Below, piece after piece: positions 22,115-56,855 of a stretch of 64,000 bases of DNA. The stretch is from contig OZ360220.1 in NCBI GenBank assembly GCA_977017645.1, forward strand, positions 128,960,001 to 129,024,000. The letters run 5' to 3'. The DNA is from Torpedo marmorata (taxonomy: Eukaryota). Made by a program: the position numbers and the translations under genes. The notes under the pieces were generated by a model. The model was not told the origin of the DNA. It was given only the letters and a program-made list of their open reading frames with translations, and ran no database searches. Numbering within the stretch: position 1 is the stretch's first letter; each line of letters starts with the position of its first letter.

Positions 22115-23504
22115 CTTTTAAAATATTTTATTTAAATTTTTAAATCACAAAATACATAAGATAAAATATAAAATTATCAAAATACATGTGATACATTTTC
22201 ACCCCCCCTCCTTCCCTCCCCTCCCTAACCCTCCCACCCCTTCTAATCTACTAAAATAAAAATATTTTAAAAAAGTAAAAATAGAAAAAAGAAAAGGATA
22301 GAGTAAGGGGAATGCCATCTATAAACTAATTCTATTGTGGAGGTCAAGCATGCCAGTAGATCCGATATCCAGAGATCATCAAATCCTTAAACCCACAGCT
22401 CTCATATATGGGCTCCAAATTTTTAAGAAAAAATTATATTTATTACGTAAATTATAGGTAATTTTTTCAAGTGGTATACACGAACGAAGTTCTGCATGCC
22501 ATCTTTCTAATCCTAAATCTAAATCAGATTTCCAAGTAATAGCAATGCATTTTTTTAAAACAGCTAAAGCAATTCGTAAAAATTCTACTTGATACATATT
22601 TAATTTCTTCTTAATGCTAAACTTTCTAATATCTCCAAACAAAAATATCATAGGATCCATTGGAAATGTAATCTTAAATACTTTATCTAAAAATTTTTTA
22701 ACTTTCAACCAAAAATCATAAACTTTTGGACAAAACCATGTAGAATGTACAAAGGAACCTTCCTCTTTATTACATCTAAAACATAAACCTGATAATGTCA
22801 GATTAAATTTCTTTAATTTTTTTAGGTGTTAAATATAATTGATGAAAAAAATTATATTGTACTAGTCTATATCTAACATTAATAATCTTCGTCATACTTA
22901 ATTTACATAATTCTTTCCAGTGATTTTCATCTATTACATTCAAATCTAGTTCCCATTTTAATCTTGATTTATGCAAACCTACTTTAGGCATTTTCCTCTG
23001 AAACAATTTATACATTTGAGAAATAAATTTATTAACATCTCCATTAGTAACTAATAATTCTAATTCATTTTGTCTTAGTAAAATCAAAGCATAACCTAAT
23101 TTCTCAATCAAAAAAGCTCTAATTTGATAATAAGCAAAAAGTGTATTATCTAATATATTAAATTTATCTTACATTCTTTGAAACGTAATAAATTTCCCAG
23201 CTTCAAAACAATCATTAATCTTCTTAATTCCTTTTTGAAATCAAATTTTAAATAATTGATTATTAATAGTAAATGGAATAAGTCCATTTTGATATAAAGG
23301 CATCTTTGAAGAAATCAATCCTTTTCCTCCTATTTCCTTGTCTGTCTTATTCCATATTTCTAACAGATGTTTAAAAATAGGCGAATTTTTCTTTTTTGTT
23401 AATATTAATTTAGAATCCCATTTATAAATAATTTCTTCTTTGGAATCATCACCTATATTATTTAATTCTATTTTAATCCAAGCAGGAAATTTAGTTGAAT
23501 CAAA
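22115..23504 (-). mobile_element. 5'-truncated L1, same family as 50905-56800
   Basis: ORF2 C-terminal peptides similar to 55208-56506; AATAAA at 22127-22132 (minus); direct repeat AAATTTACCCTACATTCTT at 22096-22114 and 23505-23523. Confidence 0.9.
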
Positions 23505-23581
23505 AAATTTACCCTACATTCTTGACCCTGAGTTGTCTGGAGATGGAGAATGATCACTTGAAGATCTAATCCTGGGAATAA

Positions 23582-28100: not shown

Positions 28101-31100
28101 AAAATATGTTTCAATCACAAAACTGTGTCCTACACAGTTAGCCAGAGAATATATTCTAAACATCAAATACTTAAATCCTAAACAAGTTGAATTTCTGCAC
28201 GCTGCTCTGAATGATGACTCCACAAAGAGCATGAATGGAGTGTCTATAATCTGAAAAAGCATTTTGACGTGCACTTGCAAGCTTAAAAACAATTGTCATA
28301 TTAGATGTCCTTTGCCCTCAGGAACTACAAATGAAATAGGGAAAAGATGGGAGAATTATAATTTTATTTATGGTTTTACCATGACTACCACCCACTCAAA
28401 CAAAAAATGAAAATTCAGGCACCTGTGATCATGAGAGAGGCAGTAAACAGAAGAGGGACTAAATTCAGGATGGAGACATAGGAGCTTTACATTCACACAT
28501 GAGAAATATTAATGGGAGAAAGATGTCAATAATTTAATATTAAGATTGCGACAGACAGTGTCTTGCCCAATATGAAATGAAAGACGCTCAGATGAATTAT
28601 TATTAGTCTTAAAATTAAATTTTTTGGAATATTTTCTATTTTCAAAGGTTTGTCCCAATGAAAGGTCAACAAACTGTCATACTGAAGATGGTCAAATATT
28701 TAATGGGTTGATGGAGTAAAACTATTTCTTCTGGTGTAGTGCAGAACAAGAGGACAACCATAAAACTGATGCCATGTTATTCAGGCATAATGTCAAGAAA
28801 CAAAAGGTGGATATCCTAAAGCTTGATGGTGACAGGGATCAATTGACCATTTAAAGACTAAGATTCCATGATTTTTGTTTAGTAAGATAACAGAACCAAT
28901 GGCAGAGAGGCAGAGTTAATACACACATCTGACCACGATTCAACAGAATGGCAATGAAGATAGGAGACTCATGACTGGAAGTTTGAAAAGGGTTATTTCA
29001 TTTACAAGTGCCGTGAATATGGTATACGTCGGGATTAACTGGAATAGGAATTTAACAAGATTTAAACAGAATTCATACCCTAAGATTCTCTCTGCAGCCC
29101 TTGAAAACAAATGTTTGAATACAGTACTTCCAAGTGAAATTAGTTTGCAATCTATGATATACTGACATCATGCCTGTGCAATACAGTAGCTTCTATCATG
29201 TTGAGCAAACAAGAAAGGGTTCCTTCTTCTTGAAAAGACAAGCAAGTCCACTCTTCATAGAGAATAAAATGGCAATTAGAGAAGGATACAATGTGAGAAA
29301 AAATAAGGCAGAGCAGAATGGGGCTTCAAACCATTAGAATACTCCATATCTTGATATCGTATTGTAACCCTGAAGATGTAACCATCAAACGAAGTGAACT
29401 ACAGTATGTGGAAGCATCACAGAGCAGTTACAGAAGAAATTGAACCGTTTTATTTTGACAGCTGGCTGCTGAACCCTTAGTTTCTTCCTTTAATTGCTGT
29501 GATTTTAAAGTTACCAGTTTCTTTTGTCAACCCAAAACAGAAAAAGATTGTAAGTTGGTCTTGCTGGCCGCTCCATTCAGATTTTCGTTAACTTTGCATA
29601 ATACTGAAATGGACAGCAAAGTACTGATCAAATGCAAGATCATCTGATGTACTACGTGTGGTAATTGTATTAAAAAATCCTTTATTGTTAGGTGGATGGA
29701 GAGGCCAACCCTTGGACCTCAAAAAATGCATCTAGAACTTTAAGCAAAGTGGTGATTTCAGCTAAAAATTGTGATACTTGCTACTGTTACTTGCTTCAAT
29801 TTTCAAAACACCAAGTACAAAATTACACAGACCTGAGACTGATTGAACTTTAGGACTCTAGGATAAATTTAAATGCATGCAAACATTTTAAATCTAGAAT
29901 AGTGATATTTTCTGAATCTACATATGTCACAAAATAATTCATGCTGCCTTCACACTTCATTATGGAATATAATTGTCCCCCAAGAACTGTCAAGATTGTG
30001 GCTTTGATCAAAGGTAACACCAATGACGGGAATTCAATGATAAAAGCTTAGACCCATCCATTTTTGTGTTAATATTATTTTACATGGATGCTGATATCAA
30101 TGATATATTTGCAATGTCAGGTTAAATCCAAAATCATGTGATTCAAATAGGGATCACATAAGTTTAGAAATCACATTCAGCGATGATGATGGACAAATAC
30201 GAAAACAAATTTAGCTGCGAGTCATCTTGGTAACCCATTTTTAAAAAGGGGTTAATGTCAGGAATAGAAACAAAAATATTCCAGTTCTGATAATTCTGGC
30301 ATCATCTCAGCATTCCAGTCATTTTTGTAAGAAGTGAAGCTTTCTTTTAACTATAAATGTCAAGGCAATTTAGTATTATAACAAATGTGTAGTAAAGGAA
30401 AGCAGTGAAACGTTTAGAGGAGCTAGAATTAGCTACAAACTTGACATTTGCCCATTTGGAGCAGGCATTTAAAGATTAATCTCAACAACTTCAGATGCTT
30501 TTTTTCTACATATACAAACTGTTTTTGGACATTGGCTGAAATCCTTATAATTGTTAAACATTTCTTTAGAATATTTTAAATAAAACTGAATTCTCTGTCA
30601 ACCCCATCTTAAACAAATACAACATAAGCATGGGTTAAAGGTGTAAATTTAAGAGAACTGAATTCACTTTGGACAATGTATCCCAAAATTCTTAACGTTT
30701 AACTCCTTCTACCACTCTTTCCAAGAGTACCAATAAATTTAATCTCTAAAAATATTATACAGTTTCATTTGGGAGATTGGAGGGTAATTCCAATCTTAAC
30801 TACAGGTGTATCTGTGGTAATATGACCCACTGGTCCATATGACATTTAGTAAATCTGAGAGTTTAAGGTAAATTACTAGCTTTGATACAGCAGCTGAAAT
30901 ATTAAGGAACAAAACATTTTGCATTTTGTCCAAATCAGCAATTATTACATCTCACTCTGGAAGGCAATCAGTGTGAAAGTACATATAATCAATCAAACGT
31001 TGCTCAAGACTATGAAAAAAAGAATGTCCACAATATTCTTTTGTTGGACGTAGAGACAATATTTACTACCACAGACTGTAGGGCAGACCTGTAAAATATT

Positions 31101-31855
31101 GCCCCGATACTCAAGGAGGTTTTGGTCAATCACATGCTAGTCCATCGAAACAACAAAAATTTCAATTTATATGACCATATTCCTGCAGATACTGAAAATC
31201 TGTTAAAGATCATCGCACATCTCAACAATAATGACAAGTGAGAAGTTTGCAATTCAAAGCAATATTAACAAGTGTTTTTGGTGTAGTTTAGGCTTTTTCA
31301 ATTGAAGTATCTGATTCAGTGACTGATCTTTTACCCTCTGAGCAATCTGTCACAAACCGTCCAGAGATCTCCATCACATCAATAAAGAGAGCAAACCTCT
31401 GGCGCCAACTAAGAATATCATATAATTGTGCTTTTGCTTCCTTTACTTCTGTGATAAGTGTTTGTTTACCAACTTCTACCATATTTTTTCATTAGAAGGT
31501 CATTGCCTTCATTTGGAGTGCAATTTTAAATACATACGAACATACAAGCACTATACTTAGCACCATCAGTGCATATCGATGAGAGAGAGAGAGAGAATTT
31601 CCGAGGGTTCCCACCCCATGAGTTGGGGAGGCAGTTTACGAGGGACGGAGGGAAAGGTGAGGGTTAGTGGGTGGTGACACAAATGGAACAAGGTGAGAAA
31701 AATCACAGGATTGCACAGTACAGAGTAAAGGACCTCTTTAGCCACACACTGTGTGGAGAAGTTTTCTCAGAAGGCACTACAGACCTTCACACCACATATT
31801 TGCTGCATGTGCGTATCGGGCAGTTTCTGGAATATGAAGCAGATTTGCAATGTTG

Positions 31856-31921
31856 CTATGCAGAATCCTGCAGTTCTTTTGCTTTCTTCAGGATCAGGTC
31901 AACATCAGAAATTGGATAATC
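31856..31921 (-). CDS. TBC1D13: TBC1 domain family member 13, exon 12 (last)
   Basis: ctcaccag|DYPISDVDLILKKAKELQDSA-TAG. Confidence 0.93.
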   Translation of the reverse strand, partial: DYPISDVDLILKKAKELQDSA

Positions 31922-48203: not shown

Positions 48204-48284
48204 CTAAGATGATATTGTCGTCAACATCAGAAATGTATTGACTAATGAAAACCTTTTTCATGACAGAAAGCAAATGACACTCAC

Positions 48285-48384
48285 GTGGTCTTCCAATGTG
48301 ACATCCTCTCGGAAGAAGCCCAGATTTGCTTTGGCAATACCAGGCTGAATGATCATCTCCTTCAAGAACTGTGCATAAATTTCC
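48285..48384 (-). CDS. TBC1D13: TBC1D13 exon 5
   Basis: EIYAQFLKEMIIQPGIAKANLGFFREDVTLEDH; 100 nt. Confidence 0.95.
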
Positions 48385-49172
48385 CTGCAAATGAACACAC
48401 TATAATCGGGTCAAAGTAAATGTCAACTGATCCTTATTCCACATGGACCAACTAAACATGTTCCTTATGTCATCAAAATCCTTCCTCCTGCTGCAGGCAG
48501 ATGTATAAAATGCTGCATAATCAACTAAAGCAATTGTTTAAATGCTAAGAAAGACCAAATTTAGTTTCTGCCAAGATGAGTTTGAGTTGCTTTAAGGCAC
48601 TTACTTTAAGGTTATTAGATAACACAGAATGAAGGCAGTTTAATTATGGGTTTAGCTGAAGACCCAAATGTTTCAGCCCAGAAAGATTCAGTTAGCAATT
48701 TAAGACTATTTGTTCAGAATTCTGTAAACTTGCATTGGTACTGACATTTAATACAAGCGTAAGCCTCTTGCTCATGTGAATTCAGGTAGTTCTGGCTGTT
48801 GATGTCAAAGTAGCATTAAGAGTGAAATAGAACTTCCTCGCTTCTCCCAAAATAAAAGATGAAACTTCCCTACCCTGTAGTTCTAAGACCAATATCCCCC
48901 TTTGTTACAGTCATCAAGCTTTCCCTCCACTCTCAGCCTCTACAGGAGTGCCGTGATAATCCCAAGAGGAGAGGTCCCTCATTGGCACTGCCAGGAATGC
49001 CGTTCTTCACCATTATAAAAATATCAAATTCTGGAAATTCACAGCAGGTCAGACTACATCTTCAACCTGAAATGTTAGCTCGGTTTTTCTTCCCACACAT
49101 TAAGCCTTTTCAGTTTTGATTTTAGATTTCTAGTATCTGCATTTTTTAAAAATTTCACATGCAGTTCTTCAC

Positions 49173-49234
49173 CTTTGTTTCTTCAAGGAGGCATTCCACT
49201 GAGCCTGCTCTGTGGGAAGGTAATTGAGGAGGAT
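49173..49234 (-). CDS. TBC1D13: TBC1D13 exon 4
   Basis: ILLNYLPTEQAQWNASLKKQR; 62 nt; strong pyrimidine tract. Confidence 0.93.
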
Positions 49235-49936
49235 CTGAGAAGAGAGAAAAAAAAAAAAAAACTGGATTCAGAAACTGCTAACAAAGTCAAACTAGGAAAG
49301 GGTGAATTTATACATTATCCAGAGCACAAAGATAGATCATGCGAGTCTTTGACTCATTGCACTGCTATTCCACTCGATCCTCTTTCCCCAACCTCATGTT
49401 AAACATCAATATTCCTTTTTATTCCTTTCTTTCCCATGTACATCCAACTTTCCCCTAAATATACATGTTATTTGCTTCATTATCGAGTTATGCAGTTGAA
49501 CTACTGTCTGGTTAATTTCCCCAAATTCCCAATTTGATACCTTGGTTTCTGTGTTATCTTTATAGCTTCTAGTTTGCTCTCTCTCGTTTAGACAGCTCCC
49601 ATCATATACATCATCAACCCATTCATAATTGTAAAGAACTCTGGACCAGCAAGTTGCATTTATGTAACAGGTTTAATATGGCAAAATGACTCAAGGGGTT
49701 TTACAAGCCACAACATAAAACACAAGACATTAAGTCAGCTGATTAAAACCTTGGTTATGGAGGTAGATTTTAGGAATTAATTAACCTCTCACCTCCACAT
49801 TCCTCTGCCTTGCACACCCCTTTAAAATTGTAAACTGAATGTGTCAATTTTTAAAAGAATATTTTGGCAGACGCACTGACCAAGACATACTAACAGAGCC
49901 AACAATAAGTTTCTATGAAGAAGGTTTCCATTAGAC

Positions 49937-50576
49937 CAGCGTTTCCCAAACTGGGTTCCGCGGAAGAAATGGGTACTAATAACTAAAACTTGTAAAAAAC
50001 TGTTTTTATTTCATTTTAATTTAAATTACTTTTTACCTGTGTTTCTAAACAGTTGCCTCGATGCTAACAAAACAAAATGGCATCTTTTTCAACCAATTAG
50101 ACTCGGATTTCTTTTGGGGCAAGGCTGGCCACATTTTTAAAATTTAAACTGCCTCCCCCTCTTCTCGCTCCCTAAGCTGGGAGCGAGGGGCGGCGTAGGC
50201 AGCCCGGGCCGTGGCGGGGAGCGGCGGGGGCGGCCCGGGCCTCGGTGGGGAGCGGCGGGGGCGGCCCGGGCCGCGGTGGGGAGCGAGGGGCGGCAGAGGT
50301 AGCCAGGCCTGTGGCGGGGTTAGCCTGGGCCCGTGGCGGGACATGGTCGGGGCGAGGGGGGGGGGCTTTACTGAAGCTCAGCCTGGGCCCGGGTGGAAGT
50401 TAATCCGCTACTGGTGAGTTTATTTACTTTTTTTATATGCTTGTATATGCTTTATGTCTATTTATTTATATGCTTGTGTATATACCAGGTCTTTTAAACT
50501 GTAAATGACGATAGTTCCGCGATTTCCAAGTGCTCCCCAAAAGGGTTCTGTGAGTTAAAAAGTTTGGGAAGCCCTG
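49937..50576. mobile_element. Non-autonomous hAT element with a GC/CpG-rich core
   Basis: TIRs CAGCGTTTCCCAAACT / AGTTTGGGAAGCCCTG; 8-bp TSD CATTAGAC (49929-49936, 50577-50584). Confidence 0.88.
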
Positions 50577-51037
50577 CATTAGACCAATTCTATTGAAAAA
50601 GTTTTCAAATTTCCCTTCATGACCCTAGCACAAATGGCTTCAGAGGAAAAACTAATTTAATCTAGAATTCCCAAACTCCTTGGATGTTCTACAGTAATGA
50701 AATCTCCCGAACAGTGCTGTGAGCAAACTTGAAAAAGAAAATTGTTTTGCTTATTTCTCTGAACATCTCTGTTTACTGGTCATTAAACACGTGAGAATAG
50801 CAAATGACCAGGTAGAGCAATTTGGTGCAAGAGGCCATGTGACAAAAATTTGAGGAATGTATCTAATGCTGGTAACCCCATTTATCTCAGATGAAAACTT
50901 ACCTGGGGCGTGGCGTGATGGCATAGGTTGGAGACGTGAAAATACACCTCTCCCTGCAGAATTAATTAAAACCCGAATAAAAGAAACTTATTTAGTTATT
51001 AAAAAAAAAAGTTAAGCTGTTTATTAACGATTCAAGA

Positions 51038-52487
51038 ATGTCTACTAGAAAAACGAAAGAGCAAAAGTCAAAGAAAACGGTGTTTAAAGAAAGTTTAATT
51101 CAAGAGGAAGATCGGCCTACCTTAACGATGGAGCCTCGGGATCAAGTTCCTCTCCCTCTGAGGAAGATGCAGACAAGGACGGTGAAGGTAACTGCAGCAC
51201 CACCGCCGTCCTCCCGGGGAGCTGGGGAAGATGGCGCTGGTGCTCGAAGAAAGGTTAAAGAACTACAACTTCCGGCGGAACGTCTGCGCTTGCGCGAAAC
51301 GACGCGCATGCGCGATAAAGATCGCGAACTGTCAGCTACAGCTGACAGTAGAAGAAAAGCTCTGCAACTGTACCGCTATGAAGCTGAACAGGAACTATCG
51401 TCGTCTACAGATTCAGAAGAAAAAAGAAGAGAGGAAGAAAGATATCAAGAATTGGAAGGAGGAATACAAGAGATGGAGGGAGAGGAGCAAGAGGAAATAA
51501 GTGGAGAAGAGGAGGCTCAAATGCTTCAAGGTAAACAAGAATTATCAGTGTCTTTTATTGAAGCTATGGACAAATTAACAAAACAAGATTCATTGCTGAA
51601 TCAACGTATGCAGCATGGATTTACAGAGGTCAAGGAAGAAATAAAAGCTGTTAAACAAGATATGAAAAAGCATTCAAATATTGTGGATAAAGTAATACTG
51701 AGGGTTCAAAAAATTGAAGAGAATGTTAAGGATCATTACGAGGAAATGGTGGACTATAAGGATAGAGTGGATAAAGTGGAAGATTCATTCACAGATTGGG
51801 AGCTACAAAGGAATGAACTTTTACAAAAAATAGACGTATTGGAAAATCAGAGTCGGAGAAATAATGTTAAAATTGTGGGACTGCCCGAAGATTTTGAAGG
51901 GACAAATCCAACAATATTTTTTCAAAACTGGATTCCACAGACTTTGGGAATTGATCATTTTCCAGATGGACTTGAGCTGGATAGAGCTCATAGAGATAGC
52001 AGGAGAAAACCATATCCTGGTCAAAGACCACGTTCAGTTCTAATTAGATGCCTTAGATATCAGGATAAAGAGAAGATATTGAAACTGGCTGTTCAAAATG
52101 CAAGAATTCATCATGGTCCATTGATGATTGATAAAAATAGGGTGTTTTTTTAATGCTGATTTGAGTATGGTAATTATAAAAAAACAGAAAGAATTTAACC
52201 CGGCGAAAGCAGTTTTGTGGGGTAAAGGATATAAATTTTCATTTAGATATCCTGCGACATTGAAAGTTCAGTCTGCAGAGAATCAGTCACTTTTCTTCAC
52301 TGATCCTCAAGAAGCTTTACAGCATGCAAATTTACTTCCAGAATTAAAGAAAGATCAAGATTTTTCGGGGCGATATCAAGTTATCTTACCGGCTCAAGAA
52401 TTGCTCTCACCAAGAGTTTTAGAACAAGAAAATGGGGTCGTAATCGATGAGGATCAAGTTAATAGAGATCTTGAAGATGCTGGATGA
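51038..52487 (+). pseudogene. L1 ORF1p (coiled coil + RRM), one frameshift at the T7 run 52145-52151
   Basis: LENQSRRNNVKIVGLPE, LDRAHR, RPRSVLIR, then FNADLS...FRYPATLKV in the next frame. Confidence 0.85.
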
Positions 52488-52774
52488 AGAAACGATAACA
52501 AATTTGTTGGAAATCTGTATGGGGGGAGGTGGACTTTTTTGTCTTCTCCGTACCTAGTCGCGCGTCATTTTAGTGGCGAGGGCCACTTCCCGAGCAATGG
52601 AGGGTGGTAGTACTGGTGTAAATATACCAGCACTATATATAGTGGGTTCTTTAGTTCTTTATTCTCTTTTTATATCCTTTTCTCTTTTTCTTTCTAAGGA
52701 GATGTCAAATAGATTACAAATGTGGAAGGGGGAGCCGGCGGATCTGATGGAGAGAGAGTTATTAAATATCGGTA

Positions 52775-55700
52775 ATGGCGGACAGTAAATTAATAAATGT
52801 AGTCAGTATTAATATAAATGGGGTCAATAATCCGATTAAAAGGAAGAAAACTTTAGCATACATCAAAAAGTCAAATGTAGATATAACTTTATTACAAGAG
52901 ACACATTTGACTGATTTAGAACATCAGAAGTTGAAAAGAGAATGGGTTGGTCAAGTGGTAGCATCTTCATTTAATTCTAAGGCTAAAGGTGTTGCTATAC
53001 TAATTAATAAGAAGTTACCCTTTAAAATACAATCGGTGGTTACTGATGTGTCAGGAAGATATGTCTTAATAAACTGTCAGATATATTCAGAAATGTGGAC
53101 TCTTCTGAATATATATGTGCCAAATACGCAAGATGAATAATTTATTCAAGATTCCTTTATGCATTTGTCAGAAGTAAACGATAATATTTTAATTGGTGGA
53201 GATTTTAATTGTTGTTTAGACCCAGTAATGGATAAAACATCCAAATCAATCATTAGAACTAAAACTGCTAAAAGAATTCTTACTATGATGAAAGATTTGA
53301 ATTTAATTGATATTTGGAGGAAGTTGAATCCGAGAGAAAAAGACTATTCTTTTTATTCTTCTAGACATGATTCTTATTCTAGAATAGACATGTTCTTACT
53401 GTCATCGCAATTACAAGATAGGGTGACTCAAGCACAATAAAAGGCAAGACTAATTTCTGACCATTCGCCTTTATTAATGTCATGTATAATTCCAGAAAAG
53501 AAAAAATTATATATAGATGGAGATTTAATTCTTCTTTACTAAAAAGAGCGGATTTTTGTAATTATATAAGAAGAGAAATCCAATAATTCTTACAGATTAA
53601 CTCTGATTCCATTTTGATAATAAATTTATTATTTGGGATGCTTTGAAAGCTTATCTAAGGTCAGATAATAAGTTATTCAGCAAAAATTAAGAAGGAATAT
53701 ATTCAGGAATTAGATAATTTGGAGAAGGAGATTGAGTTTTTGGAGAAGGATTTACAAAAAAAGAGATCAGAAGAAAAGAAGAAAAATTTAATTGAGAAAA
53801 ATTTATATTATAATACGTTACAAACATATAAAATGGAAAAGCTCATTGAAAGAACTAAGCAAAGGTATTATGAATTGGGAGAAAGAGTTCATAAAGTTTT
53901 AGCCTGGCAATTAAAGAAAGAACAAACTTCTAGAACTATAACGGCTATAAAAAAGAATTCTAAGAAAATAACTTATAAACCGCGAAAAATAAATGATTCT
54001 TTCAAGGATTTTTATTTGAATTTATATACATCTCAAGTCGATAAAGATGAATCTAAAATTAACAAATTTTTATCCAAAATTAAGATGCCTAGGTTAAATA
54101 CACATAGTAAAGAATCTTTAGATTCACCATTTACGATGAGAGAAGTTAATGAGGTCTTAGTTCTTTAACAAGTGGAAACTCTCCGGGGGAGGATGGTTTC
54201 CCATCAGAATTTTATAAGAAATTTAAGGACTTATTGATACCTCCTTATATGGAAGTGTTAAAACAAATAACGGAAACTCATTCTCTACCGGAAACCTTTT
54301 TAAATGCAATAATAACAGTTATACCTAAAAAAGATAGAGACTGGTTGAAAACAGAATCATATAGACCAATTTCGTTGTTAAATGTGGACTATAAGATAAT
54401 GGCGAAAATTTTAGCAAATAGAGTGGCTAAGTATTTACCAGATTTAGTTCATGTGGATCAAGCAGGTTTTATTAAGAACAGATATTCAAAAGATAATATC
54501 GCTAGATTAATTAGTTTAATAAATGTGGCACAAAAGAGAAAGGAACTGGCATTAGTATTAACATTAGATGCCGAAAAGGCTTTTGATAGATTAGAGTGGA
54601 ATTATTTATTTAAGGTACTGGAAAAATTTGGTTTTGGAAATACATTTATTAATTGGATTAAAACTATATATAAAGAACCTTCTGCTAGAGTGGTCACAAA
54701 TGGACAAATATCTTCAAAATTTTCCTTAACTAGACAAGGTTGTCCTTTATCGCTAGCATTGTTTATTTTAGCAATAGAACCTTTAGCAGAATTAATTAGA
54801 CAAGATATTAAGATTGTAGGTATTAAAGTTGGTAATGAAGAACACAAAATTAGTTTATTTGCAGATGACATATTGATATATATGACAAAACCTATTAATT
54901 CTTTAATGCAATTGTCTGTTTTATTGAGAGAATATGGGGAAATATCTGGTTATAAGATTAATTCGGATAAAAGTGAAATTATGCCTTTAACACAAGGGGA
55001 TTATAGTAAATGTAAAGAAATTACACAATTTAAATGGTCAAAGGAAGGAATTAAATATTTGGGAATAAAGATTGATACAAAATTAACTAATCTGTATAAA
55101 TTAAACTATTTACCATTATTTGTGAATATAAAAAAAATCTGGAAAGTTGGAAGGATTTACCTATAACTCTATAGGTAAATTATATTATAAGGGTAAATTG
55201 TATTAAAATGAATGTTTTTCCGAGAATTCAATATCTTTTTCAATCAATTCCTTATGAAATTCCTCAGAAATTTTTTAAAGATTTAAATTTAATTATTAGG
55301 AAATTTTTGTGGAACGGAAAGTTGGCTAGAGTAGGTATGGAGAAATTAACCTGGAATTATGAAATGGGTGGTCTACAGCTTCCTAATTTTCAATATTACT
55401 ATAAAGCAGCCCAACTAAAATTTATTAACGAATTGTTTGATTTAGGAAAACTCTCTGCTTGGATGAGAATAGAATTAAATAATATAGGAGAGGATTTGAA
55501 AGAAGTTATTTATAAATGGAATTCTAAATTATTATTAACTAGAGGGAAAAATTCTCCTGTTTTTGGACATTTGTTAGAAATATGGAGTAGAGTGGATAAA
55601 GAAATAGGAGCGAAAGGGTCAATTTCTCGAAAAATGCCTCTGTATCAAAATAAACTTATCCCATTTACTGTTGATAATCAATTATTTAAAATTTGGTTCC

Positions 55701-56549
55701 AAAAGGGAATTAAGGAAATAAATGATTGTTTTGAAGCTAGTAAATTTATTACGTTTCAAAGAATGAAAGATAAGTTTAATGTAGCAAACAATACAATCTT
55801 TGCTTACTATCAAATCAGAGCATTTTTAGTTGAAAGGTTGGGCCATAGTTTGATTTTACCTAGACAGACAGAACTGGAAGTATTAGTTACTAATGGAGGT
55901 GTTAATAAATTTATTTCTCAAATGTATAGATTGTTACAGAGGAAAATGCCTAAACCAGGAATTCACAAATCAAGATTAAATTGGGAAACAGATTTGAATG
56001 TAATAATAGATGAAGAACACTGGAAAGAATTATGTAAACAAAGTATGATGAAGATTATTAATGTTAGATATAGATTGGTGCAATATAATTTTTTTCATCA
56101 ATTATATTTAACACCTAAAAAATTAAAGAAATTTAATCCGACACTATCTGGTTTATGTTTTAGATGTAATAGAGAGGAAGGTTCTTTTGTACATTCTACA
56201 TGGTTTTGTCCAAAAGTATATGATTTTTGTTTGAAAGTTTAAAAGTTTTTAGATAAAGTATTAAGAATTACACTCCCAATGGATCCTATGATATTTTTGT
56301 TTGGAGATATTAAAAGAACCAGTGTTAAAATGAAATTAAATATGTATCAAACAGAATTTTTACGTATTGCTTTAGCCGTTTCTAAGAAATGTATTGCCAT
56401 TACATGGAAATCGGATGTAGATTTAGGGTTAGAAAGATGGCATGCAGAATTGCGTTCATGTATACCACTTGAAAAAATTTACGTAATAAATATCATTTCT
56501 TTTTGAAAATATGGAGCCCATATATAAAAACTGTCGGTTTAAGGATTTG
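52775..56549 (+). pseudogene. L1 ORF2p (endonuclease-reverse transcriptase), multiple stops and frameshifts
   Basis: SININGVN, LQETH, GGDFN, SRIDMF, YRPISLLNVDYK, LDAEKAFDR, RQGCPLS, LFADD, CFRC...HSTWFC. Confidence 0.9.
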
Positions 56550-56814
56550 AAGATCTCCGGATATTGGATCTGACTGGCGAACCTGTGTTCCACAACAAAA
56601 TTAGTTTATAGTTGTTTTGTTTAGAGTGACATTCTCCTTACTTTATCTTTTTCTTCCTTCTCTCTTTTTTTCGGGAGGGTTAGGGAAGGGGGGGAGGGAG
56701 GGAGGGAGAAAATGTATCACATGTAATCTGATAATTTTGCATTTTAAACTACGTATGTATTGTGTGATTTAAAATTTTTAAATAAAATATTTTAAAAAAA
56801 AGATGAAAACTTAC

Positions 56815-56855
56815 CTTCCAGCAAAGTGAGCGCAGTCCCCCTTCAAATGGAATTC
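56815..56855 (-). CDS. TBC1D13: TBC1D13 exon 3
   Basis: tcacag|GIPFEGGLRSLCWK|gtaagt; 41 nt. Confidence 0.93.

Follow-up and report, generated by a model that had tools for sequence, protein, structure and literature searches.

When a retrotransposon lands on a splice donor and duplicates it, is the second copy put to use, and what would it make? The question is raised by intron 3 of TBC1D13 in Torpedo marmorata. According to an earlier note, the target-site duplication (TSD) of an L1 element had copied the exon-3 donor there, and a single insertion had thereby produced a ready-made in-frame cassette exon of 51 nt. We analysed the whole 64,000-nt stretch of contig OZ360220.1 that contains this locus (the window). 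The features are collected in Table 1; a slash marks a splice or reading boundary here and below.

Table 1. Features of the TBC1D13 locus and of the L1 element in its intron 3 (positions in the window)
Feature	Position	Strand	Details
TBC1D13 gene	63551 to 31856	-	12 exons and, as a thirteenth, an alternative one of 102 nt
TBC1D13 exon 3	56815..56855	-	41 nt, GIPFEGGLRSLCWK; native donor AAG/GTAAGT
TBC1D13 exon 4	49173..49234 (start 49234)	-	62 nt; strongest acceptor of TBC1D13
TSD copy 1	56801..56816		original donor (last 2 nt of exon 3 and first 14 nt of intron 3)
TSD copy 2	50889..50904		new donor CAG/GTAAGT, GT at 50902; also juxtaposed AG/GT, the ratchet-point form
L1-clade non-LTR retrotransposon	50905..56800	+, antisense to TBC1D13	full-length, 5,896 bp; both ORFs disrupted; tail short and A-rich
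ORF1	51038..52487	+	split into pieces of 371 and 106 aa (two relatives have 482-486 aa); ATG at 51038
ORF2	52775..56242	+	broken into five or more pieces, with endonuclease, reverse transcriptase and a zinc-binding C-terminal part
CpG-rich stretch	51151..51400		CpG o/e 1.1, GC 55%; within ORF1 coding region; putative promoter
Candidate 51-nt in-frame exon	50903..50953	-	49 nt of antisense L1 5'UTR plus 2 nt of TSD
Alternative cryptic exons ending at the new donor	50903..51157	-	all stop-containing
Acceptor 51157	51157		255-nt exon, 4.7 bits, in-frame stop
Acceptor 51155	51155		253-nt exon, 3.1 bits, in-frame stop
Acceptor 51044	51044		142-nt exon, 3.1 bits, in-frame stop
Acceptor 51041	51041		139-nt exon, 5.4 bits, in-frame stop

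The best-scoring named protein match of the TBC1D13 product was from the electric ray Narcine bancroftii. Exons 3 and 4 meet in phase 0 across an intron of 7.6 kb. The alternative 102-nt exon is in frame (36837-36736, minus strand; TVGSFRKAARWEVPL...) and is present in shark, ray and chimaera isoforms, accounting for isoform lengths of 431 versus 397 aa in cartilaginous fishes. Exon 2 (60316-60269, minus strand) contains an alternative-frame ATG (MNQRSASP...). The same ATG starts annotated isoforms in Pristis and Rhinoraja (P0141 and P0007, respectively) that skip exon 3 and rejoin the frame at exon 4, and the 41-nt exon 3 may be natively skippable in rays. In these two isoforms a different N-terminus is joined to exon 4, but both are exon-3 skips and neither contains an exon from intron 3. 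Downstream of the L1, at 49960-50580, intron 3 also carries a MITE-like element, bounded by terminal inverted repeats, and a GC-rich 31-bp tandem array. Downstream of TBC1D13 lies a gene that, from its translations, we take to be ENDOG-like (21628-20891, 9210-9049 and 7813-7478, minus strand). A related L1, truncated at its 5' end, lies directly upstream of this gene (22382-23513, minus strand).

Read along the gene strand, the 16-mer of the TSD is AG/GTAAGTTTTCATCT; it occurs exactly twice in the window and can be extended in neither direction. Because nine of the 20 relatives of the element that were fetched have TSDs of 10-17 bp in the same position, we take the duplication to be a true TSD and not a chance similarity. 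The second copy adjoins the L1 5' end without extra bases. The donor formed at this joint is the sole 9/9 consensus match among the 1,569 intronic GT sites of TBC1D13, and it is better than all 12 real donors of the gene, which match at 5-8 of 9 positions. The earlier note was thus right about the insertion and about the copied donor. To produce such a duplication, the gene strand would have been nicked 14 nt into the intron and the second cut made 2 nt inside exon 3; a nick followed by a second cut of this kind is the standard pattern of target-primed reverse transcription.

The element was assigned to the L1 clade from the endonuclease and reverse transcriptase of its ORF2, an L1-type ORF1 (a weak match) and an A-rich tail with a 16-bp TSD; variable TSDs of 7-20 bp are a hallmark of the clade, as is an ORF1 that combines a coiled coil with an RRM. 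The ORF2 domains matched PF03372 (N-terminal APE-type endonuclease, E 1.5e-8) and PF00078 (reverse transcriptase, E 8e-40), and zf-RVT stayed below the cut-off (E 0.0014). The best PDB match of ORF1 was human LINE-1 ORF1p, weakly (E 0.0023), and no ORF1 family was returned from Pfam. Base 50905 corresponds to family position 1 in most of 40 scored matches; hence the 5' end is complete. The 5'UTR is ~133 nt long and contains the acceptor of the candidate exon. Family-wide, the 5'UTR is short (~130 nt) and opens with motifs that we take to be GC-box-like and YY1-like; relatives from ~96% down to ~70% identical nevertheless have their first 23 bases in common.

Compared with the majority of 10 near-full-length relatives, the TBC1D13 copy differs at 69 of 5,656 non-CpG sites (1.2%) and at 8 of 192 CpG sites (4.2%); non-CpG divergence in the other 10 copies ranges from 1.0 to 2.4%. 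None of the 21 family copies examined has an intact ORF2. Because of this divergence and the lack of an intact ORF2 in these copies, we regard the insertion as old and inactive. A search of the assembly for a second haplotype or an empty allele found this locus alone.

Is the family drawn to donors? We counted its members in the 6.2-Gb genome by exact matches to the 5' end and obtained 11,405 intact 5' ends. Among them a donor motif directly abuts the element in one copy, that in TBC1D13. When 0-8 intervening bases were allowed, donor-like flanks numbered 16, versus 25 for a permuted control with the same letters. This result, together with the unrelated TSDs of the relatives, led us to reject donor targeting by the family. 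A sequence-specific element of the L1/Tx1 type was also set aside; the TSDs of the relatives share only a purine-rich start. If the genome has 150,000-250,000 donors, half of them AG/GT, 0.6-1.0 insertions of this sort are expected by chance, and a TSD covering a donor is, by this count, at chance level for this genome. The reading frame of the candidate exon is also a matter of chance, because 1-5 extra bases lie between TSD and element in all nine relatives with a traceable TSD and none do in the TBC1D13 copy. The 15 other motif-bearing copies were fetched as well. Ten had a plausible TSD holding the motif, and the far sides of seven of these ten matched repeats in the loci compared (one site being placed 8 nt off). 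A Pfam scan of eight open frames found no host-gene family, though it missed the true exon 3, used as a control, too.

The second part of the claim concerned the 51-nt segment. It is indeed free of stops and phase 0-0, reading GEVYFHVSNLCHHATPQ, and it is bounded by a canonical acceptor, CAG/G, with a 33-nt AG-free zone, and by the new donor. We scored acceptors with a rough model trained on the 13 real acceptors of the window, which is neither MaxEntScan nor SpliceAI. Under this model the acceptor at 50953 reached 2.8 bits, above four of the 13 real ones and within the top 4% of intronic AGs (72 of 1,704 score as high). It is not alone. Within 400 nt upstream of the new donor lie 24 AGs, four of which score above 50953, and all four would give exons with early in-frame stops (Table 1). 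If the new donor recruits an exon, a decay-targeted form would be at least as likely as the 51-nt form. GAA/GGA/AAG triplets, a crude enhancer proxy, occur once in the 51-nt segment and 6-9 times in exons 2-4, and loosely defined pseudo-exon pairs are common in TBC1D13 (39 pairs on 18 donors).

From these data, we consider it probable that the L1 TSD copied the exon-3 donor by chance and that the copy is a mostly silent cryptic donor. Exon 3 would still be joined to exon 4, and what leaks would be mainly exons removed by nonsense-mediated decay (NMD) and not the 51-nt exon. In this scheme, several acceptors would compete for the new donor, as the 13-site model suggests, the stop-containing splice forms would be cleared by NMD, and selection would have tolerated the insertion because normal splicing dominates. 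Several observations stand against so quiet a copy. The best argument for some use is the new donor itself, a unique perfect match that surpasses every real donor of the gene. The rank of 50953 points the same way, as four real acceptors score lower, and the acceptor model was trained on few sites. Cryptic exons derived from L1, with splice sites of ordinary appearance, do enter transcripts in human patients, as reported in the available text of PMC3219598.

A more consequential outcome would be a poison exon used at a meaningful level, in which the new donor, paired with 51044/51041 or with 51157, sends part of the TBC1D13 mRNA to NMD and lowers expression. The three acceptors concerned all score above 50953, a U-rich tract before 51044/51041 is found family-wide, a 72-nt AG-free zone precedes 51044, and stops fall at codons 1, 6 and 12 of the respective exons. 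A parallel is the L1 in RB1, whose 5' junction gave several pseudo-exons with one common donor (PMC8819188, in the part available). However, the insertion has persisted long enough to accumulate its 1.2% change, which makes a large loss of mRNA less plausible, and we regard this outcome as unlikely.

Doubtful, too, is the possibility put forward in the earlier note, that the 51-nt segment serves as a genuine alternative exon, included at a measurable level and adding 17 residues after LRSLCWK. Its perfect donor, its acceptor and its open frame speak for it; the in-frame form would escape decay, and the neighbouring exons are equally short (41 and 62 nt). Against it are the stronger competing acceptors nearby, the lack of a sign of sequence constraint and the place where the residues would enter. 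They would fall between Lys46 and Ile47, inside a predicted helix (residues 37-48, pLDDT 98 when the Narcine protein was modelled with AlphaFold2 from a 69-sequence alignment), in a stretch that aligns ungapped to yeast Gyp1p. Among 145 distant homologues, 116 span the site and 29 are unaligned across it; 115 of the 116 have no indel there, and one carries a 9-residue insertion, a point against the quiet reading. Of 158 proteins (first search plus clusters), 104, of vertebrate type, show the motif, and 103 of these continue WK/[IV]LL. The candidate peptide occurs in none of the 158 TBC1D13 proteins, a set with none known from this species. The 17 residues would split the conserved RxxxW helix, so that the in-frame product would more probably be an impaired Rab-GAP than a variant of some use. 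As for constraint, the first 130 nt of the L1, which include the candidate exon and its acceptor, differ from the family at 2 of 127 sites, the rate of the whole element; this family comparison, of low power, revealed neither constraint nor a splice-strengthening change, and the 50953 acceptor is identical in 30 of 30 family copies. The description of the segment as "ready-made" was therefore not sustained, in view of the four stronger stop-carrying acceptors, the fortuitous frame, the split helix and the missing peptide.

Five runs from two studies, which we presumed to be RNA, were found through the putative 3'UTR (29000-31920), and contigs from four of them were compared with 48260-51030; assembled contigs drop rare forms. 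Exons 4 and 5 were joined at the predicted sites in contigs of three of the four runs. A link between the candidate exon and exon 4 appeared in none of the 10 joints listed, all from contigs and mostly from a relative that maybe does not have the insertion. One contig of 882 letters contained exons 5 and 4 followed by 147 letters that were not placed on the candidate exon and whose length fits exons 3, 2 and 1. Run X1 covers exon 5 and not exon 4, and 50678-50863 was covered by no run. Runs X2-X4 come from the relative, with 49 differing letters in an 856-letter intron-4 contig (~6%). Since this is more than twice the 1.2% of the L1, the relative probably diverged before the L1 inserted and may not carry it. 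In two runs of the related species, a single contig (48357-49201) extends across the whole of intron 4 at a depth of 14-20, which suggests a retained intron, or else pre-mRNA or DNA among the sequenced material.

The new donor could also be used with no acceptor at all, if the CpG-rich stretch of the L1 acts as a promoter firing toward the L1 5' end, so that an antisense first exon ends at the TSD donor and is spliced to exon 4. The protein would then start at Met78, and an isoform with this start is annotated in a shark (P0151). The stretch lies 250-500 nt upstream of the donor and contains motifs that we take to be NRF1-like (51304) and ETS-like (51268), each present in 26 of 30 copies. In human L1, an antisense promoter is known, as are donors through which fusions with downstream exons arise (PMC4859970, as far as its text was available). 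On the other side, CpG sites in the TBC1D13 L1 copy have decayed ~3.4 times faster than non-CpG sites, suggesting germ-line methylation and hence silencing, and an out-of-frame ATG (50924) lies upstream of the donor. We hold such a first exon to be quite improbable.

Less probable still is a recursive splice site. Exon 3 would first be joined to the AG at 50904-50903, removing the L1 with one TSD copy and regenerating the pre-insertion donor exactly, and the remaining 1.67 kb would be removed afterwards. The TSD by construction yields the juxtaposed CAG/GTAAGT, here with a 45-nt AG-free zone, and this is the form of a ratchet point (PMC8605326, available part). If this were the case, a 5.9-kb L1 would be cut from the pre-mRNA and the donor rebuilt letter for letter; the origin of a ratchet point in a TSD could then be traced at this locus, which would also show a route by which a host gene neutralises an L1. 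According to the same source, RS-exons must be recognised first and ratchet points lie mostly in long introns. We therefore give this reading very little weight, as the tract is C-rich (0.5 bit), the intron is only 7.6 kb and the downstream region offers no good RS-exon donor (6/9 at 94 nt, 7/9 at 866 nt).

How does the copied donor compare with known systems? Among the closest is the L1 at the intron-14 acceptor of RB1 in familial retinoblastoma, also an L1 on a splice signal with a TSD that covers it, and with pseudo-exons at its 5' junction formed from several acceptors and one donor (PMC4859970, PMC8819188). There, however, an acceptor was struck by a new, disease-causing insertion and the RNA was examined; in TBC1D13 a donor was copied, the original is intact, and the insertion is old and known from DNA. 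The canine merle SINE at the PMEL intron 10/exon 11 boundary is likewise an antisense retroposon with a cryptic acceptor inside, and its 15-bp TSD contains the splice site (PMC7349775). It differs in being a SINE, in acting on the acceptor side through an exon extension set by poly(T) length, and in having a proven phenotype. The L1 cryptic exons of NF1 and CYBB also show that intronic L1 sequence can be exonised, but they are embedded in the element, and the available text of PMC3219598 describes no TSD-derived donor for them, unlike the donor seen here. Introners co-opt a splice signal from their TSD as well, yet most are short DNA transposons whose insertions lie in exons and are constitutively excised, family-wide, as whole new introns (PMC11282704, available part). 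The TBC1D13 element is a single member of an L1 family of thousands and sits in an intron that already existed, so we did not class it as an introner. Intronic ratchet points and RS-exons have the same juxtaposed acceptor-donor AG/GTAAGT, but those described so far are conserved sites of long introns, followed downstream by an RS-exon donor (PMC8605326), whereas the TBC1D13 site has a weak tract in a short intron.

TSDs covering a splice signal are thus known on the acceptor side, from the RB1 L1 (PMC4859970, PMC8819188) and the merle SINE (PMC7349775), each consulted in part. Among titles and abstract openings in the literature searched, which held few subscription papers, no description of a donor copied by an L1 TSD was found. 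A targeted search of partial coverage found nothing on a retrotransposon TSD tied to recursive splicing or to AGGT intron gain.

Together, these comparisons make the TBC1D13 L1 a tidy example of a known accident, the copying of a splice signal by a retrotransposon TSD; here it happened in a cartilaginous fish and to a donor, the rarer case. If RNA showed that the copied site is used, one dated event would have made either a new exon (an ordinary, a poison or a first exon) or a recursive site. The ancestral state can be read from the TSD and from ~11,000 sister copies, and the locus, if the donor is used, would offer a natural experiment, free of confounding changes, on how much a perfect donor can do alone.
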